64,000 nt of DNA from an uncultured Desulfospira sp. (lineage in GTDB: Bacteria; Desulfobacterota; Desulfobacteria; Desulfobacterales; Desulfobacteraceae). The stretch spans positions 3,648,001 to 3,712,000 of the forward strand of contig OY760175.1 of assembly GCA_963663165.1 (NCBI GenBank), read 5' to 3'. The notes under the pieces are model-generated. The model was not told the DNA's origin. It did no database searches and worked only from the letters and a program-made list of their open reading frames with translations. The translations under genes were made by a program, and so were the position numbers. Below are positions 14,258 to 43,406 of the stretch, in pieces. Numbering within the stretch: position 1 is the first letter of the stretch; every line of letters starts with the position of its first letter.

Positions 14258-14262
14258 AAATC

Positions 14263-15402: not shown

Positions 15403-15423
15403 CCGCCACACTTTCGAAAATAA

Positions 15424-15891
15424 TTGATGACAACCAGCCGGCAAAAAAACAATAGGAAAGACACCGTGTACGATAAGGCAATGAGTCCCAATCTCAATTT
15501 TCTTCTGGTGGATGATGACCCCAGAATCTTGAAGACCCTCCGGAAAACCTTAGAGGCTGCCGGATTCAAAAACCTGCATACGGCTGAAAACGGAAAGGCG
15601 GCCCTTAACTGCCTTCGGGAATACGGCATAGACCTGGTTTTCATGGACTGGGACATGCCGGAAATGAACGGCGGCGAAGTCCTTGAAGAAATGCAGACCC
15701 AAAACATGCTCACCCACACCAAAGTGGTGATGCTCACCGCCCACTCTGAAAAAGACTATGTGGTGGTATCCAAACAGCTGGGCGCAGCCAATTATATCAT
15801 AAAGCCCTTCACCCCCATTGCCATCTATGAAAAACTCGAATCGATTTTTCATGCCAACCTCCCCTATAAAAACGACATTGTTTTTTTGTAA
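15424..15891 (+). CDS. CheY-like single-domain response regulator
   Basis: LVDDD, MDWDMPEMNG, KPF; start may be ATG 15481. Confidence 0.88.
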   Translation: MMTTSRQKNNRKDTVYDKAMSPNLNFLLVDDDPRILKTLRKTLEAAGFKNLHTAENGKAALNCLREYGIDLVFMDWDMPEMNGGEVLEEMQTQNMLTHTKVVMLTAHSEKDYVVVSKQLGAANYIIKPFTPIAIYEKLESIFHANLPYKNDIVFL

Positions 15892-15942: not shown

Positions 15943-18900
15943 TTATTTCCCATGGATCACTATTCCAAACCCCGAAACCAGCCGGGCAAGGTCGCAGGCA
16001 TCGATCCTGCCGTCCCCGTTAAAATCACCTTCCGGAAAAAAAGCCGTATCCTGTGCGGTACTTCCCAGGGCCGGCAGCAACAGGGCCAGATCTTTTCCAT
16101 CCACATCAAAATCTTTGTCCAGGTCTATTTGGGGTGCGATTTCCTGGAGATCTACCCGGCCCAGGCCTGAGGCCATGACGCAAAGGTCCTTTTGGTCAAT
16201 GACATTGTCCCGGTTAAAATCCGCCCGGGCCAGAAACCCGGGCTGACCTGAGACACTGCCCAGTGCCGCGGCAAAAAGGGCCAGGTCCTCTCCATCCACA
16301 TCCAGATCAAGGTCGAAGTCGGCTGCCATGGGGTTGCCCGGATGAATGTCAGCATTCTTTGGATCCGTTCCAAGCCCTGTTTCTTCCCCGTCCCCGTATC
16401 CGTCATTGTCCGAATCCCAGTCAAAAGGATCGGTTCCAAGGGCAATTTCATCGGCGTTTAACAGGCCGTCCTGGTCGGCATCCCCGGCCCGGGTCATGGT
16501 GGTAAAGGTCCACAACGGCCCCTCGGTTTCCCCGCCATGGGAATCCAGGCAGACGATTTTCCAGAAATACTGAACCCCATAGTCAAGGCCGGCAAGTTCA
16601 AACTCCGGCACCAGAAGGCCCTGCCCTGACGGGGCCATTTCATCGGGGTCCGTGCCCAGGTACAGGTTGAAACTCAGGCTGTCCAGGGGATCAGGATCCG
16701 TTCCTGTCCAGGATAAAACAAGATCCGGGAAAGTCTGGATTTTCCCGTTCTCAGGGTCAGGCGAACAGGGAATATCAGGGTCTTGATTATGGGTGACCGT
16801 CACGGGGACAGGACTGTATACCCCCATGGAACTGTCACTGTCACTGATTTCAAGATAAATGTAATAGGTCCCTTCCGGCACCAGTGCCACGTTCCAGGCA
16901 AATTCATCATCTTCTAAATCAGGATCTTCAAGAATCCCGTCCTGGATCAGGGTTCCGTCAAATCCCTGGTCGTCGGTATCGTAAAAAATGGAAATCCATG
17001 CGTTGGAATCCGGGTCCTCATCGGTCCATTGAATTAAAATATCCCCGCTGTTTTCAACCACACTTGTCACAGGCTGTACCAGGGTAATCTGAGGGGGAAC
17101 GTTTTCTTCCACATATTTAAGAAAAAACCGGGTAACCACACTCCAGGGCCCGGGAAGGCCATGTCCGTCAACGGCCCGGCACCGGAAATAGTAAGTTGAA
17201 AAATTTTCAAGCTCAGGTTCCACCTGCCAGGAATTAGCGGCGGTTTCAGTCTCGCGGACCACCTGGCTGAGCCCGGCATCGGCATATACTTCAAACTCAA
17301 AGGTTAAATCATCCCTGTCCGGTTCCAAGACCGGGTTAACTTCCAGCACAGGGGTAAGGGTGGTGACCCAGGCCCCCGTGTCCGGATTGTTGATGGAGGG
17401 TGTAGCCGGGGTCTGGTTCGCCGAATTGGTAAAAAAAGAGCCAGACGCCCACTCACTGCACCCACTGCCGCTAAAGGCCCGGACCCGCCAGAAATACAAG
17501 GTGTTGTCCATTAAATTTCCCGGTTCCCAGGACACGGATTTCTGGGCGATGCCTGTTTTTTCCGAAACCATAAGGTTTGAGCTGTCAAAGGCCGGGGACA
17601 GATCCAGCTCAAAAGAGTAGTTCATGGACCCGGAAACCGGATCAACGCTGCCCGAAGCGGTGAGAACCGGGGCAAGGCTTTGTATCTCTTCCCCCTGGGC
17701 CGGACTAGAAATCAGCGGTGTTCCGGGAGGCGAATGGGTAACGTCCACGGTAAAGGATGCCACAGGGGAAAATGTGCTGTTGCCCTCATTGTCGGTCAGT
17801 TTACACCGCCAGTAATAGGTCGTGCCGTCTTCCAGATCCGTATCCGCCTGCCAGGACAGGGTGGTTTCTTCTCCGGGATCCAGGTCAGGAGAGCCCGCCA
17901 CAAAAAGGGTTAAAGCGTCATCGGAAAAGATTTGAAATTCAGCGGTTAATTGATCCTGGTCCGGATTTTCTTTGCAGGTTACGCTGAGGACCGGATTAAG
18001 GGTGGCCGAAAGGCCCTGGTCACAGGGGCCGGCAATTAAGGGCGGGCCCGGCGGTTCATCCACCGCATTGACAAAGAATGTTCCATAGGTCCACAGGCTG
18101 TATGCAATGCCGTCACAGGCCCTGACCCGCCAGTAAACCGTCTGATTTTCCAGGAAGGCGTCAACCGGACTGAACGAGGTTGAGGGTTCTGCCTCGGGCA
18201 CCTGGTACCGGCTTTCCAAAAGGTCCGTATATTCCGGATCACTGTAAATCTCAACATCATAAAACAGGGCATCGCCGTCCTTGTCCGTACTGTTGGCGAT
18301 CTCCAGAACCGGAGAAAGTGTATCAACCGGTGATCCGTCAAGGGGCTGTATAATCCCCGGGGCAGACGGCCCGTATTCGCCGTCCAGGGGATCCAGGCCG
18401 GTTAAATATTCGTCCAGGTCGCAGATCCCGTCATGATCAAAGTCTTCTGAACCGTCCCGGTCCAGGGAGTCGAAATGGCTGATCTCCCACTGATCCGCCA
18501 TCCCGTCGCAGTCAGCGTCCGACCCGGGACAAATTTTAATGGCCCCGGAGGTTGATGTTTCAAGAACGCCGTCAGAGGCGGTAAAAATAATTGAATAGGA
18601 ACCGGCCTGGCCGCTCAAGGGGACCCAGTCAAATATGGCCTGGCCGTTTTCCTGGTCTGTAAAAACCGCCCCGGCCGGCAGGGATACGGCCGTCAGGCTC
18701 GGGATGGTGCCGTCCGGGTCACTGGCAATCACCATAAATGAAACCGGGTCCCCTTCGACACGGACCATATCCGGTACCGGCTGGATAACCGGGGCCTGGG
18801 GTGAATCTGCCGGTTCGGTTAAGACCAGCGTATAGGACCCGGTGGAATTCACGTCAAAAATATTAAAATAATAAGACCATTGGCTGGTCCCTTCCCGTTC

Positions 18901-20145
18901 TTTGGAAAACCAGGCGTTCTGAAGGGAGATCTGCTTTCCGTCAGACCGAGTCAGGCGCTTTATCTCCATTGCACCGCCTTCAGGGTCCGTCAGTTTGGCA
19001 AAGGAAAACCCGGTGCCCTGGGGAAGGGTTAAGCCATAGGTCTTTTCATCTGCCGTGCCGGTCTTAAACGTAAGGCCGGCCTGGGAGGAGACATCGCTTA
19101 CCTGGGATTCGGTGTTTTCCGACTCATAGATCACCAGTCCCTGGTCCGACTGTCCCAAAAAGTCATTGATGTCGTCCCGGCCCGGCAGGTCCACCCGGAC
19201 CTCTCCCACAAGGGTGTGGGTCTGCACGTCCGTGATCAGCGAGGTCAGGTCCCCGCCCAGCTCATCGGAGTGAGTGAAATTGGCTGAAAAATTTTCAAAC
19301 CGTCCGGACAATGAACTGGTCATGGTCCAGGCCGCCGTCTTGCATGTCCCGGGATCAATATCCCCGAATTGCGCTAAAAGGGAGGCGGATGTCTCCTGTC
19401 CCTGGATGCGTGTCCCGGTAATTACAAAATGGACCAGCAGGTTCTGGTCATTTTCCGTAATCTCGGGCTGGGCCGACTGGATGGAAAGGTCCACGGCCTT
19501 CCCGTATCCTGAATTTTTCACCCGGGCCCCGAACACAAAGGGGACCGGTGCTTCGATTTGAGTCGTAAAGGCATCATCGCCATACACATACTCCGGTAAA
19601 AAATAATCCAGGGTCAGTTCCGGCATGGGTTTGACATGGATATAATCCGGGGACACCCGGGTGAGCTGCTCTTCCCCGTTAAGGGTATAGGTCAGCTGTG
19701 CCCCCACATAGTAAAGCCGGCCTGCGGCAGACTGCCCCCCGGACCCCGGCGCCGGGATGATGAGCCAGTGAATATCGGCATAGGAAGCAGGATTAACACT
19801 CCCGGAACCGTCCACATCCGCAATATTTTCCAGGGTGTCCACCCGGATGAAAAAGGCGGCCTCGGTGTCACTGGAATCAGAGGATGCCGTAACCGCGTTC
19901 TCCAGTTCATCGGTAAACAGCACCTTGACGGCCACATTTTCAAGACTGGTTTCGGGCAGGCTGTTCAATATGCGCATGTGGGCATCAAAGGCCTGGCGTT
20001 CAAGGGAAAGCTCCTGCTCGATCGAAAGCTTGACTTCGGCGCATACGGATTCTTCGGCATAAGCCCTGCAGCAGCAGAGAGAAAATACAATGAAAATCAG
20101 CAGGAAACACGGTTTTGTCTTTGAATTATTCATTTTCATGATCAA
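15943..20145 (-). CDS. Large secreted modular protein (N-terminal domain of unknown function, Ig/FN3-like repeats, TSP3-like Ca-binding repeats, C-terminal dockerin/EF-hand-like pairs)
   Basis: Signal peptide (..RAYA-EE); repeated YYWRVRA; DADCDGMADQWE; DSDNDGYGDGEE; C-terminal ADFDLDLDVDGEDL and GDFNGDGRIDACDL. Confidence 0.8.
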   Translation of the reverse strand: MIMKMNNSKTKPCFLLIFIVFSLCCCRAYAEESVCAEVKLSIEQELSLERQAFDAHMRILNSLPETSLENVAVKVLFTDELENAVTASSDSSDTEAAFFIRVDTLENIADVDGSGSVNPASYADIHWLIIPAPGSGGQSAAGRLYYVGAQLTYTLNGEEQLTRVSPDYIHVKPMPELTLDYFLPEYVYGDDAFTTQIEAPVPFVFGARVKNSGYGKAVDLSIQSAQPEITENDQNLLVHFVITGTRIQGQETSASLLAQFGDIDPGTCKTAAWTMTSSLSGRFENFSANFTHSDELGGDLTSLITDVQTHTLVGEVRVDLPGRDDINDFLGQSDQGLVIYESENTESQVSDVSSQAGLTFKTGTADEKTYGLTLPQGTGFSFAKLTDPEGGAMEIKRLTRSDGKQISLQNAWFSKEREGTSQWSYYFNIFDVNSTGSYTLVLTEPADSPQAPVIQPVPDMVRVEGDPVSFMVIASDPDGTIPSLTAVSLPAGAVFTDQENGQAIFDWVPLSGQAGSYSIIFTASDGVLETSTSGAIKICPGSDADCDGMADQWEISHFDSLDRDGSEDFDHDGICDLDEYLTGLDPLDGEYGPSAPGIIQPLDGSPVDTLSPVLEIANSTDKDGDALFYDVEIYSDPEYTDLLESRYQVPEAEPSTSFSPVDAFLENQTVYWRVRACDGIAYSLWTYGTFFVNAVDEPPGPPLIAGPCDQGLSATLNPVLSVTCKENPDQDQLTAEFQIFSDDALTLFVAGSPDLDPGEETTLSWQADTDLEDGTTYYWRCKLTDNEGNSTFSPVASFTVDVTHSPPGTPLISSPAQGEEIQSLAPVLTASGSVDPVSGSMNYSFELDLSPAFDSSNLMVSEKTGIAQKSVSWEPGNLMDNTLYFWRVRAFSGSGCSEWASGSFFTNSANQTPATPSINNPDTGAWVTTLTPVLEVNPVLEPDRDDLTFEFEVYADAGLSQVVRETETAANSWQVEPELENFSTYYFRCRAVDGHGLPGPWSVVTRFFLKYVEENVPPQITLVQPVTSVVENSGDILIQWTDEDPDSNAWISIFYDTDDQGFDGTLIQDGILEDPDLEDDEFAWNVALVPEGTYYIYLEISDSDSSMGVYSPVPVTVTHNQDPDIPCSPDPENGKIQTFPDLVLSWTGTDPDPLDSLSFNLYLGTDPDEMAPSGQGLLVPEFELAGLDYGVQYFWKIVCLDSHGGETEGPLWTFTTMTRAGDADQDGLLNADEIALGTDPFDWDSDNDGYGDGEETGLGTDPKNADIHPGNPMAADFDLDLDVDGEDLALFAAALGSVSGQPGFLARADFNRDNVIDQKDLCVMASGLGRVDLQEIAPQIDLDKDFDVDGKDLALLLPALGSTAQDTAFFPEGDFNGDGRIDACDLARLVSGFGIVIHGK

Positions 20146-20176
20146 TATTTTTTTCCTGTATATATTGGACTGCCGC

Positions 20177-23100
20177 TTAAATTCCGTCGTAAGCCTCTTG
20201 CCAGTTTTTGCTGTGTTTTTTTAACATCTTCCCACCATTATTAATGGATTTTGCCCCTGCAATTATCAAATCCCCAGCGCCCGGCACCTGTGTCCACCCG
20301 ACCGTACCCTCAACCATGGTTTCAATAACGCAGGCATCAGATGTCGGATCTTTTCCCTTTAAGTGCTGTTCATAGGCCTTTGCCGCCATGGGCCCCAAAA
20401 CGATGCCGACCACGGGAACAGCGCCGATTACCGCTCCGGCAATACCGGGCAGAATGCCGTGCTGCCCCCCCATCAAGGCACCGATGGCAGCCCCAAGAAC
20501 CATGGAGCCCATAATAAAGAATTCCCCTTCCGGATCAACCAGGGTCATGGGATTATTTGAAGCATATCCGTAAAACATAACACTTCCCCCCTCAAATCCC
20601 AGGGGATCGACCCTGGTATACCGGCCTGTCTCAGGGTCATAATAACGGTTCCAGTTATAGTGCAGGCCGGTTTCAGCATCATAATACTGGCCCGGGAACC
20701 TCAGGTTGTTTACCACTTGTTCGACCATGACGTCGGTTTTTCCAAAGGCCCGGGCAGTTGCTTTCCATACGACAGTTCCATAAATATCGGTCAGCGCCAG
20801 GGGCGTTCCAAGGTGGTTGTTGTGATAAAAATAGATGTTGCCGCCCTGCTGCATGAATACCGGGTCCGTGGTCCAGCCGCTGCCGGGTTTATAGTCATAT
20901 GTCCTGATTTCATTGCCGGCTGCGTCATATTCCCCTGCCAGGCCTTCATCGGAATAGTAAAACCAGGTCCTGACGCCTTCAACCTCTTTCCACAGCCGTT
21001 TCCCAAACGGGTCATAGCCGTATTCGGCTGTCAGGGTGCCGGTATTAATATCCCCGGCCCATACCTGCACCAGTCGTCCGGTAACGTTATAAACATAGCT
21101 GATGGTATTTCCGTTTTCCGTTTTCCGGATCAGGTTGCCGTTGGCGTCGAACGCCTGGGAGATACCGCCGTAACTTACCAGTTCATTGTTGGCGTTAACC
21201 GTTATCTCACCGGTTACACCGTCAGCATGGGTCCGGTTACCCACCAGATCATAGGCAAAATCTTCTTCAACCGTCCCGTTCTTTGCCACGCCCAGAAGCT
21301 GGTATGCCCTGTCATATGTATAGGAAAAGGAGTCTGTCCCGCTTGTTTGGCCAATGATATTTCCCATGTTATCCAGGGTGACGGCGGCATCTGTCACCGG
21401 GTTTCCTCCGGGATCAGATACCTTGATGCTCAGAGGCCTCATCAACGGATCATGGGTAAATGTCTGCCGGGTTCCACCGGGCAGTGTCGCACCTGTGGGC
21501 GTCATCCATAAGAATCCATTATAGGAAATAGTCCCGACACCGGGTATGGTGATGCCGGAAAGCTGGTTGGCCCCGTCATACTGATAGGTTCTGGTTACCT
21601 GATCCGGGCCGGTATAGGATACTTTCAGCCCGTTTGCGTCATAGGTGTAAGCATGGGATTTGGAAAATGAACCATAGTTAACGGTCTGGGATATTTTCCT
21701 GCCCCCGGCATCATACCAATAGGTCCCGGATATGCTTCCATCTGAATAGGCGGTTAGTTTCCCGGATTTATCATAATCAAACAAGATCTCCTTTACCGGT
21801 TCTGAATAATCGTCTGCCGAATAATACCGGACAGTCACCAGGTTGTTGGCATCCGAGTAAACAAACCGGGTCTTTTGATTTTCAGCATCAATTTTTTCAA
21901 CCAGATTTCCGGCCCCGTCATAATCATAGGACGTGACCTGTCCCATGGGCCGGATCTCTTTTTTCAAGCGGTTGTTCAAGTCATATTCAAACCGGGTGAT
22001 CTGTCCTTTTGCATCCTCCAGGCCGATTAAATTGTCCCTGTTGTCATATAAATACGCGGTTTCCTCTCCATTGGCATTGATCACCTTTTTTATCCTGCCA
22101 AGGCTGTCATATTCAAAGGTGCTTGGATTGCCCTGCCGGTCCTCACGGAAGATAAGGTTTCCGGCCGGGTCATAGGCAAAGCTGCTTTCATGGGACAGCG
22201 CATCACTCAACAGATCGGTCTGTTTAACAATCATCCCCCTTGAATCATACTCAAAGGACCGTGAAAAAGTGGGAAAATCAATTTTTTCAATCTGGTTGGA
22301 ACCGGCCACATTACAGGACGGGCAGGCCTGAGAGAGGCCGGGAACCCCGTAATTGAGAACCGTGTTTATGTTATCGCCGTTTGTAATCTGACTTAATCGT
22401 CCCTGATCGTCGTATCCGAGTCGGTTGGTTTTCCCTTCAGCATCAACCATCCGGACAAGGTTGCCGCCGTCATCATACACCAGGTTGAATTCATGATGAT
22501 CCGGGAATTGAATTCTAACAAGGTTCTCAGACCCATCATATTCGTAAAGTGTCTGCCTGTCCTCTTCATCAAAAAAGGATTGAGTTCTGCCGGCATCATC
22601 ATACACAAACCGCTGTGCATGACCTGCGGGATCGGTTCTTGAAGTGAGCCTGCCTTGATCGTCATATTCAAACTGCCAGGTTTTTCCCCGGCCATCAGTC
22701 ACTGTTTCCGGATTGCCAAGGGAATCATACCCGGTAGCGCTGATTTCATTTCCTTCAGGGTCCTTGATATAGTTGAGGTTCCCTTTGGTATCATACCCGA
22801 ATGTGGTCACTGCATCCTGGGTGCCGTCTTCTCCGGGCACCTTATGGGTGAGGATATTGCCATACGCATCATGGGTATACTCAATGGTCCGTGCCACATC
22901 GGTCCCGGGGGCCTGGACCATGTTTAACAGATTCCCCTTTTCGTCATATTCATAGGTGGTGACCATTCCGCGCTCATCCGTTTTTTTCACCACCTTTGAA
23001 AGAAGCGTATCGTACTCATAGGTCACCGAGGTGCCGTCGGGGTGGGTGACGGATGTCAGATTTTCCCACTCATCATAGGCATAGGTGGTCACATTGCCCA

Positions 23101-26100: not shown

Positions 26101-29100
26101 CCACCAGGGTCAGTTCCCGGATCTGGGTTAAGCCGGACATGGAGACTTCAGAATCTGATCCCGTGCCATAGTGAATCCGGTCAATGGCCAGTTCAACCTG
26201 GGCCGTGTCGGATATGGCGGCGGGTACCTGGATCTGAACCGCATCAGACGTAAAAATATCCCCGGGGTCTATTTTGGCCACGGTATCGCCGTTGGGCAGG
26301 GTGGTGACGGCAAGGCCGGTTTTCTGGACAAAGGCGGCCGTGGAAGAGACATTGCCGTCCTCATCCAGGAGTCTGAACCGGATCTCATCGGAAGAGCCGC
26401 CACTCTTTGCAGTCATAATTTCAATGGACTCCTGGCCGGTATTCTCCAGGGTGAACCGGACCTCTCCCGTGCCGCCCCGGGTAAATTCCTCATTAAGGAT
26501 CCCGGCAATGAGCATCCCGTCCCGGACCTGGACCTCACGGTTTTGGATAATCCGGACCTGGTCCGAGGTTGTGGGGCTGATGTCAATGGTGACGGCCATG
26601 GCTTCGAGATCTTCCAGCTGCGCATATCCGCCCATAACCACAGGGACGACCCGGTATTCACCGGCTTCAAGGGCAAACGGATCGCTTATATGAGAGTTGC
26701 CGCCGATATCCACCATCACCTGTACCGGATCAAGGGGGGTTTCAGAAAAATTGCCCACCAGGAACTCCAGACGGTTCATCAATCCCCGCCTTATGGGGGA
26801 GAGCCCGGCGATCCGGGTCTCAAGGTCCGGAACATACACCAGGATCTCATCCAGCCGGTCCTGGAAATCCGTTATATCTGCTTTGTTGAGCAGATCAATA
26901 CCGGTTTCGGGAAGCCAGAGGCTTCTGGCAAGGCTTACGGCGCTGTTAACCTCATCAACGGCCACCACCGCATACTGGATGCTGTCCGAGGTATAACCGG
27001 TATCCTCATAGGAAAATTGGGTAATCAAGGCGTCATTGAGTTGGGTTCCGGTCGGGTCCGGGCCCGAATAGATATCAAATCCCGAGACACCGGCATTGCC
27101 GTGGGTCCAGGAAATCACCGGGAACTTTTCATCTTCCTGGACAACGGCCATTCCGGAAACCGGCAGCAGGGCCGCATTCAAATATGCCGTGGCGGGTTCG
27201 GATTCGTTCTGGGCCTCATCCACAGCCGTTATCCCGTAATGGGGGGCGGTATGGATTGGAGACGGATCCAGGACCTCAAGGGCTGCGATCCCCTGGATCA
27301 GGGCGGTCATTCCCAGAACGGATGTGACGGGCTGGGCATCCCTGTAAAGGGTATACAAAAGGCTTTCCCCTTCTTCAACCCCATCCCAGGATGCCCGGAT
27401 TCCCTGTCCGGTCAACTCCAGGGTGAAATTGGCCGGCATGTCCGGGGCAGTGGCATCGGACAGGGCGCTTACCGGATCACTTAAGGGGCTCAAGCTCTCA
27501 AGCTCGCCGATCTGCCGGATGCTGGCCAAAGCGTAGGTATAAAGGCCTTCGGGTTCGGCATTGGCAACAGGGTCATCGGTAAATGTATCTGTATCCAGTG
27601 TTCTGGCAAAGAGGGTAAGGGCCTCTTCACCAGGGGCTTTTCGATAAATCTGATATCCGGCACTCTCCTCAATTTCAGTCCATGACAGCCTGATTTTTCC
27701 GCCGGCAAGAGATTGCGCCGTAAAGTCATCGGGTGCGCTTAAGGGGGGCAGATCCCCCTGGAAGATTTCAAAACGGTTTTCCCCTGTAATGCGGCGGCTT
27801 TCATTGTCCAGATCATCCATGGCTGAAAAGGTAAACACCATAAACTCAGCCGCCTCAAGCCCGGCATCGGCCGGCAGGTCAAACATTACCTGGAAGGTCT
27901 GGGCATCCCCGGATTCAGCCGGAATTTCTGTCAGGGCCCCGCAGCCGGTTTCAGCCCGGTCCGCTCCGGACAGAAGGTATGAGAGTGCGGGGACGGTGCC
28001 GGATTTCACCGCTTCGTCCAGGCCCAGGGTAACGGTCAGGGACGCCGGCTCGTCCGGGTCATTTTGAACCGGGGCCGGGGGATCAACGGCAATTCTGGTC
28101 AGAACGGGTCCCTGGGTATCAATCAGAACGGATTTTCCCGATTGAATTTCAGTTCCCCGGTTTCCCACAAGGTCCCGCCCGGAAAATATCGCCCAGGCCT
28201 GCCCCGAAGGCGTGGCCGTGTCAATGGAGAATCCCCCTTCGTATTGGGTATCGTCTGTTTTTGTCAAAGAAATGATAATGGGGTTGCCGCCGGTCGGGGT
28301 CAGGCTGAAAAACGGGGTTGTCAAAAGGGGCTCGCTCAGTGTCAGGACGACATTGACCACGCCGGTTCCCATTCTTTGGGACACGGCATCATAAAACCCC
28401 GAATGAACGAACTCAACTTGTTCCACAAAGGGCATGACCCTGTCGGATACTGCCTGGGCCTTTTCCGACAGCAGGCTTTCATTTCCGGCCGTGTCCACTG
28501 CGGCAATCCGGTATATCCAGGTACCGTCCTCAGGGGGAAGGTCATTGAAAAGGCAGGATAAAGCCAGGGAGGAATTGACCGCCACGGCATCTGCGGGCAG
28601 GCTGAAATCCGCATTAGACCGGTAAATGTTATACCCTTTGACACCGGTATCTTCCGGGGACTGCCAGGAGAGCCGGATCACCCCGGCCTGGCCGGCCGTT
28701 GCCGACAGATGGGTGGGGGGCATGGGAATGGCTGTGTCCAGTGTCACGGAAACGGCCGTGGTCAGGGCACTGTCTCCTTTCCGGTTCCGGGCACAGGCCT
28801 GAATACGGTTAAGCCCTTCGGTCAGGCCCACTTTAACGGAAAAATTGCCGTCGTCTCCAACATCGGTTTGGGCCGATTCCTGTCCATTGACAAAAATCAC
28901 CAGAATGCTGCCTGCCGGGGCCGTCCCTGTGGCCGTAATGACGGGCACACCGGTGACGCAGGCTTCAGGTGAGACCAGGACCGGCGGATCAGGAAGATCC
29001 AGATCAATGGTAAAGGCAATATCTTTGGACGAAACATTGCCCAGGGAATCCATTGCCGTAATGGTCAGGATATGGGCACCGTCTGAGAAATCTTCCAAAG

Positions 29101-32100
29101 AGAGCCGGCAGCTGTAGGTGGTTGATCCGTTATTGTCCGTATAGACCAGATTCCCGTCCACCAGAAACGAGACCTGGCTGATGCCGGCTGGATCAGATCC
29201 GGTCAGGGTAATCCAGCCGGTTTTTCCAAGGGTCATATTTTCCTGGAAAGTGTCTGAATCCCATTGGGTATCTGTTATGGAAGGCCCCTGGGTGTCCGGG
29301 ACCGGTACGGCGCAAATTGTTGCAACCCCGGTATTTTCCCCTCCGGACAGGTTGACGGTTGTCACGGCCATATAATAGGTGGTGTTGTTGGTCAGCCCGG
29401 CTATTCCGGCTGAAAGGCCGGTGGCGGTAACTGCCGGGGAAAGGCCGGTGACATCTGAGAAATCAGAATCACTGATATAGATACGGTACTGTTTGACCAG
29501 CTCTGACGGTTCTGCCCCGTCCCAGGTCAGATTCACGTATCCGCTGTGGGGATCAGATATAAGATTGACGGGGTTGGGAAGCCACGTAATACCGGAAAGC
29601 TGTACCCCCGCACTTTCGTTCCCGGAAAAATCAAGGGCCGTAATCCTGAACCATACCCGGGTGGCCGGGGCAAGGCCGGTGAGCTCATAACCGGCCTGGG
29701 AGGCGGGAATATCCGTCCCTTCAGTTTGGCCGTCAATATAGACCCTGTAACCGGACAGATCCCCATAGGTGTTGGCCGAATGGGTCCAGGAAAACAGCAG
29801 CCGGTCATTAAAACATTGGACCGCAAGTCCGGTGGCATCCTCGGGCGGGGTGGTATCGGCAATCAGGGGAAGGGCTTGGGAAAGCGCATTGTTGAGCTCA
29901 TCAGACTCTTCGACCTCACCGCTGCTGTCGGCATTGACCGTTATGGTGTGGTAGCCGGGAGTGCTTTTCCAGGTCCAGGTGACATCAAGGAGATCCCCGG
30001 GCATCATGACCTGGTTAAGCCGTGAGGTCCTGACCGGATTTTCATCAATTAGAAAGGCAATATTCACGGGCACGGCCAGGGGGCCTTCACCGGTATTTTC
30101 GATCTTTGCCGTAAAGACAAGGGGAGTGCCGGACTGGATATCCTGGGCCGGTTCCCAGGATATGGCCGAAACCGTAAGATCCGGGGGCGGCCCCTGGGTC
30201 AGGAACCGGAAGACTTTACTTGCGGTCGCTTCTCCTGCTGCATCTTTTGCAACCACCTGCCAGTAATACCAGGTTCCCAGGGCAAGGTCCGACACCGTAT
30301 AGCCCGGTGAAGACAGATCCTGGGCAAGTAGGACCAGGCTGTCAGGCCCTGTTCCGAAGTAAAGATCATAGGTCAGCACATCCCAGGGGTTGGGGTCGCT
30401 GCACTGCCAGGACAGGGCAAGGGTGCCGTCGGTTAAGGCAACCTGAGTCCCCTGGTCTGCCGGAACCGGGCTGACCGGGGCAAACGGGGCGGTATTGGGC
30501 GGCGGAAGGGTAACACAGTCGCTGGGCTCAATCAGCCAGGGGGCGGTTTCCACTTCCCCGTAGACCGCATCCCCGGCATAACCGGGTCCCTGGACATCAT
30601 TCCACCAGTTGTTGGCCGCGGTTACGGCCAGGGTATTATTGTATATGCCAAACTGGCTGTTTCCCACAAAATTATTCTGTTCAATATAGGGGGCGGCTGA
30701 ATTTTCAAGTCTGATGCCGGTCTGGTTTTCCGTTAGGTTGTTGCAGTGCAGCACGGCATTGTTGCACCCGGTTCCGGACAGATAAATCCCTGCCGCGGAA
30801 CTTGCCCGGACAGTGGTATTGACAATGGTCGGAGACGCGTTGCCGCACAAAATAGCCCCATTAACGTCTTGTCCGGCAAATTCCACCACGCAATGGTCCA
30901 GCATCGTGTCAGCGTCAACCGTCAGGTCCTGAAAATTGATTCCCCGCCAGTCACCGGGAGCCGGGGCCTCGCTGGCCGAGGTGAACAATACCGGGGCGTC
31001 CGCCGTGCCGTTGACCTTTAATGTGCCCAAATCGTAACCATAACCGATCTTAAGCCAGGAATAGCCTTCAAATTTTACAATTGATCCGGCCTCTACGGTT
31101 AATATGGCCGGGGTGCTGCTGTCTTTGAAAACATACAGGTCCCCGTTTACCACATAGGGCAGGCCCTCATTGGCATGCCAGGTGGATTTCCAGTTGAGCG
31201 TTCCGGCATCCATCCGGATTCCCCTGGACGCTACTCCCGCATTGCCCGTCATATGTTCCAGGTTTACATCCGGGTAAAATCGCAGCCCGTATTCGTCATT
31301 TTGGGTAAAGGTGTTGTCCTGGATTACCGGCGAGGCGTTGCCTTTAAAATAAATCCCGGACCCGGCATTGGCCGTGAAGGTCGAATTTTTAATGACAGCG
31401 CTGCTGCCGCTGCCCTGGCCGGACAGCCCAAAACCGAGGTTCTCCTGAAACCGGGCGTTTTCTATTGTCGGGGCTGCGTTTCCCAGATAAATCCCCGCAT
31501 TGGTTCCACAGCCTGCGTATTCAACGGTAAAATGCCTCAGGACCGTCTGATCATCCACGGTCTTGTCATGAAAACTGATCCCCTGCCAGTCTCCGGGGGC
31601 CGGGTTCTCACTGGCCGAGGTGAACAATACCGGGGCATCTGCCGTGCCATTGACCTTTAATGTGCCCAAATCGTAGCCGTAACCGATCTGCAGCCGAATA
31701 TTGTCTTTAAATTTTACAATTGATCCCGCCTCTATGGTTAAAACGGCCGGGGTGCTGCTGTTTTTGCAGACAGTCACGTTTCCGGCCACCACATAGGGCA
31801 GGCCGTCATTGGCATGCCAGGTGGATTTCCAGTTGACCGTTCCGCCATCTATTCTGATCCCGTTGGACGTAACCCCCGCATTGCCCGTCATATTTTCCAG
31901 GTTTACACCCGGGTGGAACTGCAGGCCGTATTCGTCATTGCCGATAAAGGTGTTGTCCCGGATTACCGGGGAGGCATTATCCTGAAAATAGATCCCGGAC
32001 CCGGCATTGGCCGTGAAGGTTGAATTTTCAATCACGGCGCTGCTGGTGCTGCCCTGGCCGGCCAGCCCAAAACCGAGGTTCTCCTGAAACCGGGCGTTTT

Positions 32101-33871
32101 CTATTGTCGGGGCTGCATTTCCCAGATAAATCCCCGCATTGGTTCCACAGCCTGCGTATTCAACGGTAAAATGCCTCAGGACCGTCTGATCATCCACGGT
32201 CTTGTCATGAAAACTGATCCCCTGCCAGTCTCCGGGGGCCGGGTTCTCACTGGCCGAGGTGAACAATACCGGGGCATCTGCCGTGCCATTGACCTTTAAT
32301 GTGCCCAAATCGTAGCCGTAACCGATCTGCAGCCGAATATTGTCTTTAAATTTTACAATTGATCCCGCCTCTATGGTTAAAACGGCCGGGGTGCTGCTGT
32401 TTTTGCAGACAGTCACGTTTCCGGCCACCACATAGGGCAGGCCGTCATTGGCATGCCAGGTGGATTTCCAGTTGACCGTCCCGGCATCTATCCGGATCCC
32501 GTTGGACCCTTCTCCCGCATTGCCCGTCATATTTTCCAGGTTCACACCCGGGTGAAACCGCAGGCCGTATTCATCATTGCCGATAAAGGTGTTGTCCCGG
32601 ATTACCGGGGAGGCATTATCCTGAAAATAGATCCCGGACCCGGCATTGGCCGTGAAGGTTGAATTTTCAATCACGGCGCTGCTGGTGCTGCCGTAGCCGG
32701 ACAGTCCAAAACCGCGGTTCATCTGAAACAGACCATTTTTCAGTGTCGGGGCCGCGTTTTCCAGGTAAATACCCGCCTTTGTTTCAAAACCGGCGTATTC
32801 AACGGTGAAGTGGCTCAGGACCGTATCCGCATCTACCGTCTTGTTCTGGAAATAAATCCCCCGCCAGTCTCCGGGGGCTGGGGTGTCACCGGCCGAGGTG
32901 AACAACACCGGCGCTGCTGCCGTGCCATTGACCTTTAATGTACCCAAATCGTAACCGTAACCGATCTGAAGCCGGGTATTGCCTTCAAATTTTACAATTG
33001 ATCCGGCCTCTATGGTTAACACGGCCGGGGTGCTGCTGTCTTTGCAGACCGTCACGTTTCCGGTCACCACATAGGGCAGGCCGTCATTGGCATGCCAGGT
33101 GGATTTCCAGTTGACCGTTCCGGCATCTATCCGGATCCCGTTGGACCCTTCTCCCGCATTGCCCGTCATATTTTCCAGGTTCACACCCGGGTGAAACCGC
33201 AGGCCGTATTCATCATTGCCGATAAAGGTGTTGTCCCGGATTACCGGGGAGGAATTATCCTGAAAATAGATCCCGGACCCGGCATTATTCGTGAAGGTTG
33301 AATTTTCAATCACGGCGCTGCTGTTGCTGCCGTAGCCGTACAACCCAACGCCGCTGTTCTCCTGAAACAGACCATTGTTCAGTGTCGGGGCGGCATTTTC
33401 CAGGTAAATACCGGCATTTGTCCCGGAACCTGCGTATTCAACGGTGAAATGGTTCAGGACCGTCTTGGCATCTACGGTCTTGTCCTGGAAATAGACCCCC
33501 CCCCAGTCACCGGGGGCCGGGCTCTCACCGGCCGAAGTGAACAATACCGGGGCGTCTGCCGTGCCGTTGACTATCAGTATTCCCAAATTGTAACCGTGGC
33601 CGATCTGCAGGCGGACATTGCTGTTGAATTTTACGGTTACACCGGCCTCTATGGTCAGGGTCGCCGCATTGGAACTGTCTTTGTAAACATATACATTACC
33701 GGTGACAACATAGGGACTGTTGGCCGCGGTCCAGGTAGTGTCTCCGGCGATGTTCCCGGAAACCAGGGTGTCGGCGGCCAGGAACCCTGCCGATGCGATC
33801 AAAATCGTGGAAATCAGCCAAATTTTTATAAACAGCTCATAGATCCTGCGCGGTCCGTATTGGTCGGTCAT
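20177..33871 (-). CDS. Giant 4564-aa secreted RHS/YD-repeat protein with parallel beta-helix repeats, CARDB and FN3/Ig domains
   Basis: Hydrophobic signal peptide; 213-aa repeats; CARDB (PDLTVS..ESDELNN); FN3 (YxxxAVD.AGNES); YD repeats; RHS core RFPGQYYDAETGLHYNWNRYYDP..NNPMTLVDPEG. Confidence 0.92.
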   Translation of the reverse strand: MTDQYGPRRIYELFIKIWLISTILIASAGFLAADTLVSGNIAGDTTWTAANSPYVVTGNVYVYKDSSNAATLTIEAGVTVKFNSNVRLQIGHGYNLGILIVNGTADAPVLFTSAGESPAPGDWGGVYFQDKTVDAKTVLNHFTVEYAGSGTNAGIYLENAAPTLNNGLFQENSGVGLYGYGSNSSAVIENSTFTNNAGSGIYFQDNSSPVIRDNTFIGNDEYGLRFHPGVNLENMTGNAGEGSNGIRIDAGTVNWKSTWHANDGLPYVVTGNVTVCKDSSTPAVLTIEAGSIVKFEGNTRLQIGYGYDLGTLKVNGTAAAPVLFTSAGDTPAPGDWRGIYFQNKTVDADTVLSHFTVEYAGFETKAGIYLENAAPTLKNGLFQMNRGFGLSGYGSTSSAVIENSTFTANAGSGIYFQDNASPVIRDNTFIGNDEYGLRFHPGVNLENMTGNAGEGSNGIRIDAGTVNWKSTWHANDGLPYVVAGNVTVCKNSSTPAVLTIEAGSIVKFKDNIRLQIGYGYDLGTLKVNGTADAPVLFTSASENPAPGDWQGISFHDKTVDDQTVLRHFTVEYAGCGTNAGIYLGNAAPTIENARFQENLGFGLAGQGSTSSAVIENSTFTANAGSGIYFQDNASPVIRDNTFIGNDEYGLQFHPGVNLENMTGNAGVTSNGIRIDGGTVNWKSTWHANDGLPYVVAGNVTVCKNSSTPAVLTIEAGSIVKFKDNIRLQIGYGYDLGTLKVNGTADAPVLFTSASENPAPGDWQGISFHDKTVDDQTVLRHFTVEYAGCGTNAGIYLGNAAPTIENARFQENLGFGLSGQGSGSSAVIKNSTFTANAGSGIYFKGNASPVIQDNTFTQNDEYGLRFYPDVNLEHMTGNAGVASRGIRMDAGTLNWKSTWHANEGLPYVVNGDLYVFKDSSTPAILTVEAGSIVKFEGYSWLKIGYGYDLGTLKVNGTADAPVLFTSASEAPAPGDWRGINFQDLTVDADTMLDHCVVEFAGQDVNGAILCGNASPTIVNTTVRASSAAGIYLSGTGCNNAVLHCNNLTENQTGIRLENSAAPYIEQNNFVGNSQFGIYNNTLAVTAANNWWNDVQGPGYAGDAVYGEVETAPWLIEPSDCVTLPPPNTAPFAPVSPVPADQGTQVALTDGTLALSWQCSDPNPWDVLTYDLYFGTGPDSLVLLAQDLSSPGYTVSDLALGTWYYWQVVAKDAAGEATASKVFRFLTQGPPPDLTVSAISWEPAQDIQSGTPLVFTAKIENTGEGPLAVPVNIAFLIDENPVRTSRLNQVMMPGDLLDVTWTWKSTPGYHTITVNADSSGEVEESDELNNALSQALPLIADTTPPEDATGLAVQCFNDRLLFSWTHSANTYGDLSGYRVYIDGQTEGTDIPASQAGYELTGLAPATRVWFRITALDFSGNESAGVQLSGITWLPNPVNLISDPHSGYVNLTWDGAEPSELVKQYRIYISDSDFSDVTGLSPAVTATGLSAGIAGLTNNTTYYMAVTTVNLSGGENTGVATICAVPVPDTQGPSITDTQWDSDTFQENMTLGKTGWITLTGSDPAGISQVSFLVDGNLVYTDNNGSTTYSCRLSLEDFSDGAHILTITAMDSLGNVSSKDIAFTIDLDLPDPPVLVSPEACVTGVPVITATGTAPAGSILVIFVNGQESAQTDVGDDGNFSVKVGLTEGLNRIQACARNRKGDSALTTAVSVTLDTAIPMPPTHLSATAGQAGVIRLSWQSPEDTGVKGYNIYRSNADFSLPADAVAVNSSLALSCLFNDLPPEDGTWIYRIAAVDTAGNESLLSEKAQAVSDRVMPFVEQVEFVHSGFYDAVSQRMGTGVVNVVLTLSEPLLTTPFFSLTPTGGNPIIISLTKTDDTQYEGGFSIDTATPSGQAWAIFSGRDLVGNRGTEIQSGKSVLIDTQGPVLTRIAVDPPAPVQNDPDEPASLTVTLGLDEAVKSGTVPALSYLLSGADRAETGCGALTEIPAESGDAQTFQVMFDLPADAGLEAAEFMVFTFSAMDDLDNESRRITGENRFEIFQGDLPPLSAPDDFTAQSLAGGKIRLSWTEIEESAGYQIYRKAPGEEALTLFARTLDTDTFTDDPVANAEPEGLYTYALASIRQIGELESLSPLSDPVSALSDATAPDMPANFTLELTGQGIRASWDGVEEGESLLYTLYRDAQPVTSVLGMTALIQGIAALEVLDPSPIHTAPHYGITAVDEAQNESEPATAYLNAALLPVSGMAVVQEDEKFPVISWTHGNAGVSGFDIYSGPDPTGTQLNDALITQFSYEDTGYTSDSIQYAVVAVDEVNSAVSLARSLWLPETGIDLLNKADITDFQDRLDEILVYVPDLETRIAGLSPIRRGLMNRLEFLVGNFSETPLDPVQVMVDIGGNSHISDPFALEAGEYRVVPVVMGGYAQLEDLEAMAVTIDISPTTSDQVRIIQNREVQVRDGMLIAGILNEEFTRGGTGEVRFTLENTGQESIEIMTAKSGGSSDEIRFRLLDEDGNVSSTAAFVQKTGLAVTTLPNGDTVAKIDPGDIFTSDAVQIQVPAAISDTAQVELAIDRIHYGTGSDSEVSMSGLTQIRELTLVDTSYYGQVLSISPEVSFGDEEILISGRAVDRATGLPKPDASLNLVIKVNGFERTFRVLTGEDGSFAYSFVPLEKESGLYQVFAVHPDLTDRSPQGEFTIHSLAVSPLNFNIRISRNYTATGTVTLLTGGGTSLTNVKLLYQAQDQPSGELATGLHLDPGDGLSSLCPGTTKALDFTLWADNTADSQIQAVLKVVSDESGDDGWQTIDLNINLSQASPVLTVSPGVIETGVAQEETRVESLMLKNTGLEILKNPSLSLVLEDGTPAPEWVRLNTPAAYDQIEVGQEKQVDISFAPTSSVTQGYYTFYLRIQSDNYAQTDVGLLAAVTNSGQGNILFKVSDIYTGTFDEANELRQGLENARIRLINDALPDIDQTLTTDDLGEALFQDLPAGSYQCRISADEHLEYTGRFWIRPGITASQDIFLDYQLVSVQWEVVPTTITDKYEIVLTTTFVTDVPAPVVVVEPASVYLPKMSAGDVYNGEFTLVNYGLIQADDLSFTLPQGNDVFQYELLSALPEAIAPNGRVTVPFRVTCLSAPDGSEDTGAGGCRVLNQCTEITYGWECANGTESLSGALHCIIYDNGECDAGSGGSTGFSSGFTVDTTYLSGGSGSGTGSSIPTPAQAPDDMEGILCEPEPNCRACDECCNSKTSQTVSSYVDLMRGKYLDYVNDMSVKVMGHTIDITRYYNEVKHYTVAAASLQAKAPASKGAAYAVDSYSKRNWHINSLGGKAQVVRTSGGTIRYLYIDGLRFEPVTDTLESDGTVTYSAPSSSPGTRAGCVAVDPDQTMVWKDERGNWAKFTGDRLDTFGNANDVTIHYVYDDEERLTGIKDHFGDQVIWYDYNSDGQVVRIRDYDGRQVSYEYNSQGKMAGVTDLLGRETRYEYDDLKRIIKKELPSGKTVLISYNANSYISSIKDAEGNGPEFEYTQNSDTTTSAMAYSSGIGTSRKRPKGKTEYYARVTTETGKITEKWFDVYGYLKKQMVNGEPVTEGAYDDRTRVVSDALGNVTTYAYDEWENLTSVTHPDGTSVTYEYDTLLSKVVKKTDERGMVTTYEYDEKGNLLNMVQAPGTDVARTIEYTHDAYGNILTHKVPGEDGTQDAVTTFGYDTKGNLNYIKDPEGNEISATGYDSLGNPETVTDGRGKTWQFEYDDQGRLTSRTDPAGHAQRFVYDDAGRTQSFFDEEDRQTLYEYDGSENLVRIQFPDHHEFNLVYDDGGNLVRMVDAEGKTNRLGYDDQGRLSQITNGDNINTVLNYGVPGLSQACPSCNVAGSNQIEKIDFPTFSRSFEYDSRGMIVKQTDLLSDALSHESSFAYDPAGNLIFREDRQGNPSTFEYDSLGRIKKVINANGEETAYLYDNRDNLIGLEDAKGQITRFEYDLNNRLKKEIRPMGQVTSYDYDGAGNLVEKIDAENQKTRFVYSDANNLVTVRYYSADDYSEPVKEILFDYDKSGKLTAYSDGSISGTYWYDAGGRKISQTVNYGSFSKSHAYTYDANGLKVSYTGPDQVTRTYQYDGANQLSGITIPGVGTISYNGFLWMTPTGATLPGGTRQTFTHDPLMRPLSIKVSDPGGNPVTDAAVTLDNMGNIIGQTSGTDSFSYTYDRAYQLLGVAKNGTVEEDFAYDLVGNRTHADGVTGEITVNANNELVSYGGISQAFDANGNLIRKTENGNTISYVYNVTGRLVQVWAGDINTGTLTAEYGYDPFGKRLWKEVEGVRTWFYYSDEGLAGEYDAAGNEIRTYDYKPGSGWTTDPVFMQQGGNIYFYHNNHLGTPLALTDIYGTVVWKATARAFGKTDVMVEQVVNNLRFPGQYYDAETGLHYNWNRYYDPETGRYTRVDPLGFEGGSVMFYGYASNNPMTLVDPEGEFFIMGSMVLGAAIGALMGGQHGILPGIAGAVIGAVPVVGIVLGPMAAKAYEQHLKGKDPTSDACVIETMVEGTVGWTQVPGAGDLIIAGAKSINNGGKMLKKHSKNWQEAYDGI
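30870..33730 (-). repeat. Intragenic tandem repeat, 639-bp (213-aa) unit, ~4.5 copies
   Basis: Landmark CATAGGG at 31153, 31792, 32431, 33070 and 33709; antisense shadow ORFs also recur every 639 bp. Confidence 0.92.
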
Positions 33872-33940
33872 GTCTGGTTAGCTCCCGTTGCTTTCATTTG
33901 CCCGGTTCCCGGAAGGGGCTTTTGTTGTTGTTTTGAGTTT

Positions 33941-34831
33941 TCAAATCATCTTGACCTTTAAACCTGGCGGATAAATTTCAAACCGGGGATGATCATCAGA
34001 ATTTCCCGCAATTATCCTGAACGTGACATAATGGTTCGTACTTTCTAAAAACACCTTGTTGGCGGGATCCGCAGTCTGCCAGGTTCCGTTAAGGTAAACT
34101 TCCGCCCAGTTGTGATATCCGGCCGGTTTGAGCAATGCATTGTTTTGGATGATATATCCGGCCATGCACCGGGCAGGAATCCCATCCGCCCGGCACAGGG
34201 CCGAGAACAGATACATAAATTCCGTACAGTCACCCTTCTTTTGATCCAGCGCATAGAGTGCGCCCTGTTCTTTGCCGTCATATCCATCGTACCTGAGGCT
34301 GCTGCTTACCCATTCATAGATTCTTTTGGCTGTCCCGGACCTGTTGTCTGCGACAAACTCTGCCGCCTTTCTTTGAATCCGGTCATTATCGGATTCAAGA
34401 TATTTTTGGGCAGATAAAAATGGTGCGGGATCGGGAAGGCGGCATGAATTGGGGATTTCGGCCAGCTTCATATGGACCGTAACCGTGATGATCCGGGTAT
34501 CGTAAGGGGCGATCACCCCAAGGGGGAACTCAAGGACCTGGTTGTGAAGGGAATCTTCTACAGAAACAAATTCATGGGATGATTCTATCAGGGTACAGCT
34601 TTGGGACGGGGTCCTTTTTACCGGGGCATGGGCCTTGAGGAGCGCACCGGTAACCACGGTCCCTCTTGGATTTTCAATGGAAAACCGGTACTGAATCTGC
34701 CTTGAGACAGGATAAACCGCCGTCCCTTCTCTATGGGAAACAGCGGCCGGGCCGCGGCTGAAATAAAAGAAAGCGGCACCCGCTACAACCATACCACATA
34801 TGATAAAGACAAGAACACGTTTAAGGTCCAT
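33941..34831 (-). CDS. Membrane-anchored transglutaminase-like domain protein
   Basis: N-terminal TM; catalytic triad motifs GDCTEF (Cys), YHNWAEV (His), WQTADP (Asp). Confidence 0.88.
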   Translation of the reverse strand: MDLKRVLVFIICGMVVAGAAFFYFSRGPAAVSHREGTAVYPVSRQIQYRFSIENPRGTVVTGALLKAHAPVKRTPSQSCTLIESSHEFVSVEDSLHNQVLEFPLGVIAPYDTRIITVTVHMKLAEIPNSCRLPDPAPFLSAQKYLESDNDRIQRKAAEFVADNRSGTAKRIYEWVSSSLRYDGYDGKEQGALYALDQKKGDCTEFMYLFSALCRADGIPARCMAGYIIQNNALLKPAGYHNWAEVYLNGTWQTADPANKVFLESTNHYVTFRIIAGNSDDHPRFEIYPPGLKVKMI

Positions 34832-35386: not shown

Positions 35387-35776
35387 GTAACTGTTCAGCA
35401 GTGCCCCACCTTCGCTCATTCAGGCCTTCTCACATAGCAACAGTATGCTACGAAGCCCTGACTAACGGCCACGGGCCGATTGGATTGTTAATCCGATTCG
35501 GCCCACAACAAATAATGAAACTGAAGATACCGGCAACGGCAGGCTATAAATTGGGCGCCGCAGGTGCTTCGCCCTCTTGTCTCTTGTTTCTTGTCTCCAG
35601 TTTCTTATAAACAGCCACGGGCTGATTTGGTTATCCAACCAAGATCCGCCCACAACAAATATTGAAAGTCTTTACGGGTAGTTAGTCAGACTTTCATATA
35701 AAAACAAATATGAAGCACTGATGAACAGTTACGGACCCTGGTTTTGCTTAGTTTTCAGCATTAGCTGAAGAGTTAC
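35387..35776 (+). mobile_element. MITE type A, complete (390 bp) with 8-bp TSD
   Basis: TIRs GTAACTGTTCAGC / GCTGAAGAGTTAC; direct repeat TTGAAAAT at 35379-35386 and 35777-35784; no transposase. Confidence 0.88.
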
Positions 35777-37261: not shown

Positions 37262-37264
37262 GTT

Positions 37265-42148: not shown

Positions 42149-42190
42149 GCCTTTGAAGGGGGCAAGGCCCGGCCTTTGCCCCTAGGGTCA

Positions 42191-43216: not shown

Positions 43217-43372
43217 AAAACCTCCTTTAATGATGTTATTTAATACTCGCATCACCGGCCGCACCGAAAAAAAATGCCCGGCCTGATAACCCTTAACTGA
43301 CTTGACAACCATCCGGGCACCGTTCATGATGTCTGACCCGTATGGAGGTGAAACAAAATTGTGCTGTATATT

Positions 43373-43406
43373 TGTTATTAATTATGTAATAACATTTTTA
43401 ATAACA
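43373..43406. promoter_or_regulatory. Putative operator of the divergent GntR regulator
   Basis: TGTTATTA-N6-TAATAACA plus an extra TAATAACA half-site in the divergent intergenic region. Confidence 0.5.

Follow-up and report, generated by a model that had tools for sequence, protein, structure and literature searches.

How is an RHS cage displayed or delivered when neither a type VI secretion system (T6SS) nor a Tc partner serves it? This question is raised by a locus of an uncultured Desulfospira sp. within the 64,000-nucleotide stretch that we analysed (the window; GenBank assembly GCA_963663165.1, contig OY760175.1, positions 3,648,001 to 3,712,000). Three genes lie there side by side, for a transglutaminase-like enzyme, a giant RHS protein (the giant) and a second secreted protein (the partner). 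An initial annotation had read them as a possible surface-displayed RHS adhesin or cargo-delivery apparatus that is matured, cross-linked or released by its own enzyme. In our analysis, giant and partner look like one connector divided into two halves; in other bacteria and in marine animals, the connector is a single chain. The genes and the parts of this junction are:

15943..20145, minus strand: partner gene, 1400 aa, with its own export signal
20177..33871, minus strand: giant gene, 4564 aa; export signal, variable adhesin arm, conserved stalk, first half of the junction, RHS cage and tip
33941..34831, minus strand: enzyme gene, 296 aa; transglutaminase-like (papain fold) with an N-terminal hydrophobic segment, an accessory component
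24827..25114, minus strand: transthyretin-like (TTR; CarboxypepD_reg) domain of the giant, aa 2920-3015 (PF13620)
24731..24826, minus strand: aa 3016-3047, a beta-hairpin that the giant is predicted to donate to the first immunoglobulin (Ig) domain of the partner; conserved in split and fused forms
24356..24730, minus strand: Ig domain of the giant (aa 3048-3122), flexible acidic/Gly loop and Cys hairpin, from the structure model and the Saccoglossus alignment
Codon 24421-24419, minus strand: C3151 at the tip of the Cys hairpin, present in 51 of 53 aligned rows
18796..20058, minus strand: second half of the junction, partner aa 30-450; three-domain all-beta region, model pLDDT (predicted local distance difference test) 89, dN/dS 0.11
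Codon 20043-20041, minus strand: C35 of the partner, present in 110 of 111 N-termini

The open reading frame (ORF) coordinates agree with three co-oriented genes separated by 69 nt and 31 nt; the partner ORF starts with TTG (1400 aa), with an ATG two codons downstream. As initially described, each protein has one hydrophobic N-terminal stretch (a cleavable signal or an anchor, least settled for the enzyme), the giant joins adhesin-like modules to RHS (Pfam Beta_helix, fn3, CARDB, Big, CarboxypepD_reg, RHS_repeat and RHS) and the partner matched Pfam Ig-like, Dockerin_1 and TSP3_bac. The reported lack of VgrG, PAAR, Hcp, EagR and Tc families held as well, with 0 matches in the 35 other ORFs of the window (short and nested ORFs left out). 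Elsewhere in this genome, at least 0.4 Mb from the locus, there are two Hcp and one VgrG; a genome search for PAAR found nothing. Among five other carrier genomes tested, VgrG exceeded the cut-off in one. Aligned contigs confirm the assembly, and all parts are under purifying selection relative to an orthologous locus (dN/dS 0.11-0.35), the lowest values being 0.11 for partner aa 30-450 and 0.12 for giant aa 2921-3125. Promoter (19 versus 14.9) and terminator scans (30 versus 25.3) stayed at chance level. Since the genes recur jointly in paralogous loci and in other genomes, their association is not due to chance.

A junction between giant and partner

We modelled giant aa 2800-3235 together with partner aa 30-450. 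The pair scored 0.88 in three runs, while the best of 3 controls scored 0.00; in a benchmark, 116 of 157 solved complexes attained the 0.88 mark, as did 2 of 215 mismatched pairs. Contacts agreed between runs to at least 93%, with a partner pLDDT of at least 87. In the most confident pairs of the model, giant aa 3016-3047 run antiparallel to partner aa 42-46 and 54-58 and lie against aa 283-286, and giant aa 3149-3153 also contact the partner. In other words, the model has the partner's first Ig domain completed by a hairpin from the giant. The initial annotation had proposed modelling of domain pairs, and binding between the two big proteins is indeed predicted; we consider the heterodimer taken by itself highly probable.

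No solved complex resembling the junction was found in structure and fold searches. When profiles of the partner and of the pre-shell region were searched against the sequences of solved structures, no specific match came up, and fold searches with both regions returned generic Ig/TTR matches alone, from which neither a new nor a known fold follows. The TTR domain of the giant matched that of carboxypeptidase D (Z 12.0, rmsd 1.7, 81 aligned). In the giant model, the ~220 residues from TTR domain to shell comprise the hairpin, one Ig domain, the Cys hairpin and a disordered linker. Homology between the two junction halves was ruled out (hhalign probability 4.5%). For partner aa 30-450, a Pfam scan found no family. 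Its relatives, 1478 proteins among 8000 scored and 2766 clusters at 50% identity, form a large domain family without a Pfam model, which is fused in cyanobacteria and planctomycetes; the content of the C-terminal arm differs among partner homologues.

Gene fusion supports the pairing independently (loci and proteins are cited below by our L and P numbers). A Nostoc PCC 7120 protein of 5297 aa (WP_044523664) holds both junction parts in one chain, and a Saccoglossus protein of 7485 aa holds them three times over. Taking the latter together with the 116 matches found with it (117 proteins, a set enriched for fusions by its query and not a frequency), we found 70 with both parts in one chain, ordered giant side before partner side. 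Of these fusions, 20 have animal names (molluscs, a crustacean and a hemichordate) and 50 are others, including Anabaenopsis, planctomycetes and a Desulfosarcina; RHS lies between the fused halves in one of the 70 (P0398). An RxK/RR motif occurs in the linker of 19 of the 20 named animal fusions versus 5 of the 50 others, and the furin-like motif of Saccoglossus aligns with the acidic/Gly loop of the giant (aa 3123-3135). In a FastTree phylogeny of 79 partner regions, midpoint-rooted, with weak deep nodes and no direction of change shown, 22 split RHS forms, 3 split Hint forms, an orphan partner and one fused protein formed a clade (support 1.0); the animal sequences grouped together (0.999) and a second split pair sat among fused forms.

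We tentatively propose a split-and-rejoin connector of bacteria and marine invertebrates, in which a half of TTR domain, hairpin and Ig domain and a half of three Ig domains would be kept locked, through the complementing hairpin and a disulfide, after the chain is cut. The cut would, as tentatively, be made by furin in animals and by gene fission, possibly together with the enzyme, in bacteria.

Fused proteins differ in their surroundings. In P0253 and P0301-P0341, so far uncharacterised surface proteins of invertebrates, the fused module is accompanied by EGF, SRCR, beta-helix, TIG or cadherin domains; a literature search found no paper describing the Saccoglossus gene. P0216 and P0205 are permuted, with RHS shell, partner region and then (P0216) giant core in one chain, so that head-to-tail chaining is possible. 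The Nostoc PCC 7120 plasmid protein at L222:11919-27812 combines the fused module with a subtilase and an RTX tail and is a probable type I substrate.

Each side of the junction has one conserved cysteine. The only partner among 111 without C35 is the orphan of this genome, which has no giant beside it. In 32 paired loci, C35 is present in 32 and C3151 in 31 (one is truncated). Among 69 fused proteins (P0338 left out), 59 have both cysteines, 4 neither, 6 the C35 side alone and none the C3151 side alone. Because both are conserved and lost together, the sequences suggest a C3151-C35 interchain disulfide. The other cysteine of the C3151 hairpin can pair across the strands of the hairpin, as read from the model. 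In the orphan partner (L029; G000, this genome, C1:1394819-1399492), the acceptor strand has diverged along with the loss of the invariant cysteine. A second pair, partner 277 and giant 3121, covaries in the 32 paired loci (18 both, 10 neither, 3 one side, 1 gap); we set it aside, as residue 277 is Ser in this copy and 3121 lies outside the confident contacts.

Gene content, helper genes and export

Is the system a three-gene unit built around the enzyme? We surveyed 301 genomes of the phylum, in which kin are not independent and drafts can miss genes. The giant core is encoded in 9 of them and the partner region in 8 of these 9, the ninth being a fragmented assembly. A rhodanese-like gene was present in 9/9, in 5 at a strict cut-off and in 4 as divergent copies adjoining the partner, whereas the enzyme subfamily was present in 4/9. 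The distribution therefore identifies giant, partner and rhodanese-like gene as the core, with the enzyme as an accessory. The rhodanese-like protein is exported, measures ~290 aa and has rhodanese-like domains without the usual catalytic Cys, judged at the position that we take to be the usual one, and a C-terminal CxxC motif. This genome's copy (L121; G000 C1:2442632-2443564) is unlinked to the locus.

Within 10 kb of the partner, in the best 80 of 242 genome loci (flanks shorter than the giant gene, further limited by short contigs), we found the enzyme in 52, the rhodanese-like gene in 33 and the giant core in 26; the titles of partner-anchored loci include Desulfobacterales, Thiotrichaceae, Nitrospirae, Verrucomicrobia, Elusimicrobia and Myxococcota, among others. 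Around the enzyme (80 loci), the rhodanese-like gene was present in 53, the partner in 28, the giant core in 8 and at least one of these in 64. In this genome, paralogous loci read enzyme-giant-partner-giant-partner; partner-enzyme-giant followed by an RHS-tail array; giant-partner; a lone giant; and a lone partner. The array follows the paralogous locus at G000 C1:1204104-1269208; it is interrupted by insertion sequences, and its differing tips each have a small downstream gene.

Thus the proposed exported RHS apparatus stood in so far as it is conserved, T6SS-independent and made of co-occurring genes, but not as three genes built around the enzyme, and even the cage is replaced by Hint in four loci. 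The gene-neighbourhood search that had been suggested for the gene triad showed genes that recur together, with an inconstant enzyme and a steadier rhodanese-like gene.

The enzyme matches PF01841 (E=3e-23), a family that we take not to be the LapG family, its nearest solved relative is 3isr, and the Cys-His-Asp triad noted at the outset (C202/H240/D255, in the core domain) is unchanged in 104/104 distinct full-length homologues. A unit whose apparatus cannot do without the enzyme, through covalent cross-linking or release of giant and partner, could draw on this triad, on the enzyme's presence in 52/80 partner-anchored loci, on the 64/80 enzyme-anchored loci with at least one other component and on two invariant Gln in the partner region. 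We nevertheless regard such a unit as improbable. With this query, the enzyme was not found in 5/9 giant genomes; the interface is explained without it; the first Gln (Q44) lies in the paired strand and is kept in animal forms; and enzyme and rhodanese-like gene end type II secretion system (T2SS) operons without a giant within 10 kb. As an accessory, the enzyme might tentatively be a protease that nicks the loop at aa 3123-3135, the furin-like site in animals, with the cage kept by the disulfide. Isopeptide cross-linking seems to us somewhat less plausible than this, and a general role as secretion helper has the same low standing as cross-linking; its sequence does not tell a protease from a cross-linking enzyme.

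Since neighbourhoods place the system beside gsp and secretin genes, we infer that it is exported by type II secretion. One Eleftheria terrae locus has, all in the same orientation, genes for giant parts, RHS, an ankyrin protein and the partner together with a complete gsp operon and genes for the rhodanese-like protein and the enzyme. In the metagenome loci L189, L190, L197, L198 and L206, the rhodanese-enzyme pair likewise comes after secretin genes. GspD is present in 8/8 partner-bearing genomes versus 167/301 overall, and this genome has a gsp operon. A folded, disulfide-linked heterodimer would fit the established behaviour of T2SS substrates.

L189, L190, L197, L198, L206 and L224 represent a T2SS operon type of their own, in which the secretin carries a cohesin domain at its C-terminal end (seen in L198 and L224) and the rhodanese-enzyme pair follows; a literature search found no paper on it. 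On a Methylomonas koyamae plasmid, the order is cohesin gene, giant, rhodanese-like gene, enzyme and partner. Cohesin genes flank some loci, and this genome has one cohesin match over the cut-off. Dockerin is absent from some partners, however, and we regard dockerin-cohesin anchoring as a lead at most.

Within the window, two imperfect copies of a sequence ~147 nt apart, surrounded by 18-nt inverted arms, lie at 35387-35732, 5' of the enzyme gene. Convergent with the partner gene, a plus-strand cluster at 8803-15891 encodes a TonB receptor, a YfiR/HmsC-like protein, a CHASE8 hybrid kinase and two receiver proteins, with a receiver-GGDEF gene directly upstream. A c-di-GMP-I riboswitch match (60650-60710, plus strand; 39.1 bits, Rfam cut-off 35 bits) has few long ORFs around it. 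At 36545-44301, where GC is higher (~0.60), lie FAD oxidoreductase, 2Fe-2S, TRAP transporter, racemase-like and GntR genes.

Cage, tips and proposed assembly

The arms, stalk, cage and tip are arranged around the junction as follows:

33773..33871, minus strand: probable Sec signal peptide of the giant, aa 1-33 (hydrophobic window aa 10-41; cleavage site inferred from sequence)
30512..33772, minus strand: variable N-terminal arm, aa 34-1120; right-handed beta-helix repeats with a ~213-aa period (PF13229, PF05048), differing among paralogues
25115..30511, minus strand: fibronectin type III (FN3), CARDB and Ig domains, then the conserved Ig-like stalk, aa 1121-2919 (Pfam); kept in paralogues and relatives
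20522..24166, minus strand: RHS/YD cage and associated core, aa ~3236-4450 (TIGR01643, TIGR03696, PF03527)
20180..20521, minus strand: C-terminal tip, 114 aa after the predicted cut; Gly-rich, hydrophobic, without family and with no immunity gene after it
15946..18795, minus strand: variable C-terminal arm of the partner; Ig/FN3-like repeats, Ca-binding DxDxDG motifs and a dockerin-like end

In fold searches, the YD shell of the cage matched 9ifo and 9pt5 over the shell alone, and the dN/dS of the cage is 0.18 against the orthologue. The autoprotease residues R4417, D4422 and D4446 are present, with a PxxxxDPxG core and the -5/+24 spacing given for BiTLP in the accessible part of a report on teneurin-like proteins (TLPs; 10.1101/2025.11.11.687626). 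By analogy, we predict a cut after E4450, which would give a tip of 114 aa. At 19 loci (22 rows, less L050, L097 and L099, which had no or a false core motif; one mis-hit partner protein was also removed), the tips measure 50-233 aa and are mostly unrelated, and those of paralogues differ too. The next gene is a small candidate immunity gene in 9 cases, the partner in 7, the rhodanese-like gene in 1 and another gene in 2. Judged by its sequences, the family as a whole thus has the marks of a polymorphic toxin system.

The copy studied here is another matter. Its tip matched no Pfam family, structure-atlas matches were all <0.9, and no immunity gene follows it, the gap to the partner being 31 nt. 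Since the tip is also kept in the orthologue, toxicity of this copy is not supported; its tip may be non-toxic or a membrane-acting cargo.

Four loci keep the giant core but end in a Hint domain in place of the RHS cage, which places the conserved unit upstream of the cage; L036 has no RHS, and in L224, L182 and L093 RHS is a separate ORF. The giants of L037, L039, L124 and L125 carry a hydrophobic helical segment and a Hint domain with a C-terminal motif Gln or Glu and almost no cargo. In Hedgehog, Hint activates the chain end for ligation, and by analogy the Hint domains of these four loci could activate the giant's end in the same way.

Such forms bear on an alternative that we think unlikely, a structural two-chain adhesin or a biofilm or sheath component in which cage and tip are passive or a relic. 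RHS-less forms would fit it (Hint in four loci, none in L036), as would the fused bacterial and animal forms, mostly without RHS (1/70), the conserved tip without immunity gene in this copy and a Cys-rich tip type that recurs without immunity genes (L052, L066, L090 and L109). However, the intact autoprotease residues and the low dN/dS of the cage argue against a relic, and so do the polymorphic tips, 9/19 of them with small downstream genes, and the RHS-tail array in this genome.

Taken as a whole, a Y-shaped complex that displays cargo on a split connector is the reading that we consider rather likely. Both chains would cross the inner membrane by Sec and meet in the periplasm, where the predicted beta-hairpin complementation and a putative C3151-C35 disulfide would lock them. 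The giant's N-terminal adhesin arm and the partner's C-terminal adhesin/anchor arm would form the two limbs, with the RHS cage hung at the junction. Because the gene split frees the C-terminus of the giant, the aspartyl protease of the cage could, by homology, cleave behind E4450, so that an exchangeable tip would be cut off and kept within the cage. The folded complex would then exit through the T2SS. From linkage alone, the exported rhodanese-like CxxC protein may be a folding or redox helper, and across the family the role would be display of polymorphic toxins for contact with other cells.

Several observations weigh against the Y-shaped display complex. The junction is a model, in a setting where halves of split genes tend to pass and fused homologues were possibly in training. 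The disulfide rests on conservation, the model having returned no C35-C3151 distance; 6/69 fused proteins keep just one cysteine, and kinship among the sequences limits their independence. Of the 80 partner-anchored loci, just 9 combine enzyme, partner and giant core (a figure limited by the 10-kb flank and short contigs), and the enzyme subfamily is found in 4/9 giant-core genomes (not with this query in the other 5). GspD is common in the phylum (55%), and T6SS, PilQ, Tad and MSHA-like genes are present in this genome as well. Finally, 8/19 tips, this copy's included, are without an immunity candidate, and the present tip is conserved rather than swapped in the orthologue (82% identical, dN/dS 0.27).

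On the tentative split-and-rejoin reading, the freed end would bear interchangeable self-cleaving payloads (RHS cage or Hint) on a redox-releasable two-armed platform with a partly dedicated T2SS, and paralogous halves mixed in one cell would allow combinatorial targeting. For the question posed at the outset, the family offers a concrete, testable design, in which two chains meet at a junction with a candidate disulfide, two dedicated helper genes accompany them and there is a link to the T2SS; it occurs in cultured non-pathogens (Methylomonas koyamae, Eleftheria terrae, Desulfosarcina and Desulfonema). In mollusc, crustacean and hemichordate surface proteins, the connector would be a second surface module shared by bacteria and animals beside teneurin. 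A stable hairpin-complementation pair would also serve as a connector in protein engineering.

Comparison with known systems

The initial annotation had named this locus the best candidate in the window for an undescribed system. We found no description of the gene set or the junction in full-text literature; subscription journals and preprint supplements were beyond reach, and TLP supplementary tables could list some of the proteins.

Two established principles resemble parts of the design. In chaperone-usher and type V pili, an Ig fold is completed by strands of another chain (donor-strand complementation); unlike there, a mid-chain hairpin is predicted to be donated here and no polymer is implied. 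LapA/LapG likewise places a papain-fold enzyme beside a giant surface protein. The BC shell of Tc toxins offered no match, as the TcB, TcC and TcA Pfam families were unmatched in the giant and in the 35 other ORFs of the window.

TLPs are closer. In the accessible part of their description, no obvious delivery machinery is known for them, and they are single chains of FN-plug, NHL and YD shell, almost all with a downstream immunity gene (10.1101/2025.11.11.687626). As far as that part goes, the present system shares with them a signal peptide, variable N-terminal adhesion modules, a TTR-like domain before the YD shell, an intact RHS autoprotease, small polymorphic tips and a patchy distribution (TLPs in <3% of species, this system in 9/301 genomes). 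It differs in that NHL is absent, a second chain completes the junction, rhodanese-like and enzyme genes are present and 8/19 tips are without an immunity candidate. No NHL beta-propeller was found in domain scans of the giant or between TTR domain and shell in the model. As to an FN-plug, the pre-shell fold searches listed no TLP entry, and their match to fly teneurin was generic TTR (Z 10.8, rmsd 2.0, 84 aligned). Since there is no NHL and the likeness to solved TLPs is confined to the shell, the giant is not a TLP.

RHS toxins exported by Sec or T2SS and bearing Ig domains are known from the part of PMC3482391 that was available; they share RHS array, Ig domains, Sec export and a transglutaminase fold with the present system. 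In those toxins, however, the transglutaminase is fused and its triad lost, whereas in the present locus a gene of its own encodes it, the triad is invariant and there is a partner chain. Could the giant then be a Sec-exported RHS or teneurin-like toxin of the ordinary kind, which forms no special complex and to which the surface-protein genes are only loosely tied? Such precedents, a cage that matches solved Rhs and TLP shells and a varying gene order speak for this, but we consider it very improbable in view of the fusions (70/117), the phyletic match (8/9), the complex score (0.88 versus 0.00), the co-loss of the cysteines and the lack of NHL.

T6SS Rhs effectors such as TseI share the RHS core, two catalytic Asp and C-terminal self-cleavage; judged against the accessible portion of PMC7170923, the locus lacks their PAAR, VgrG and chaperone link and has an export signal instead. 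S8-PTS, in the excerpt of PMC9424270 at hand, is likewise a polymorphic toxin type with a linked processing peptidase, but it is Gram-positive and uses a subtilase and a small BetaH carrier, with no RHS and no second chain. Seen against these systems, the present one is an RHS polymorphic variant on a previously undescribed split connector that reaches into animals.

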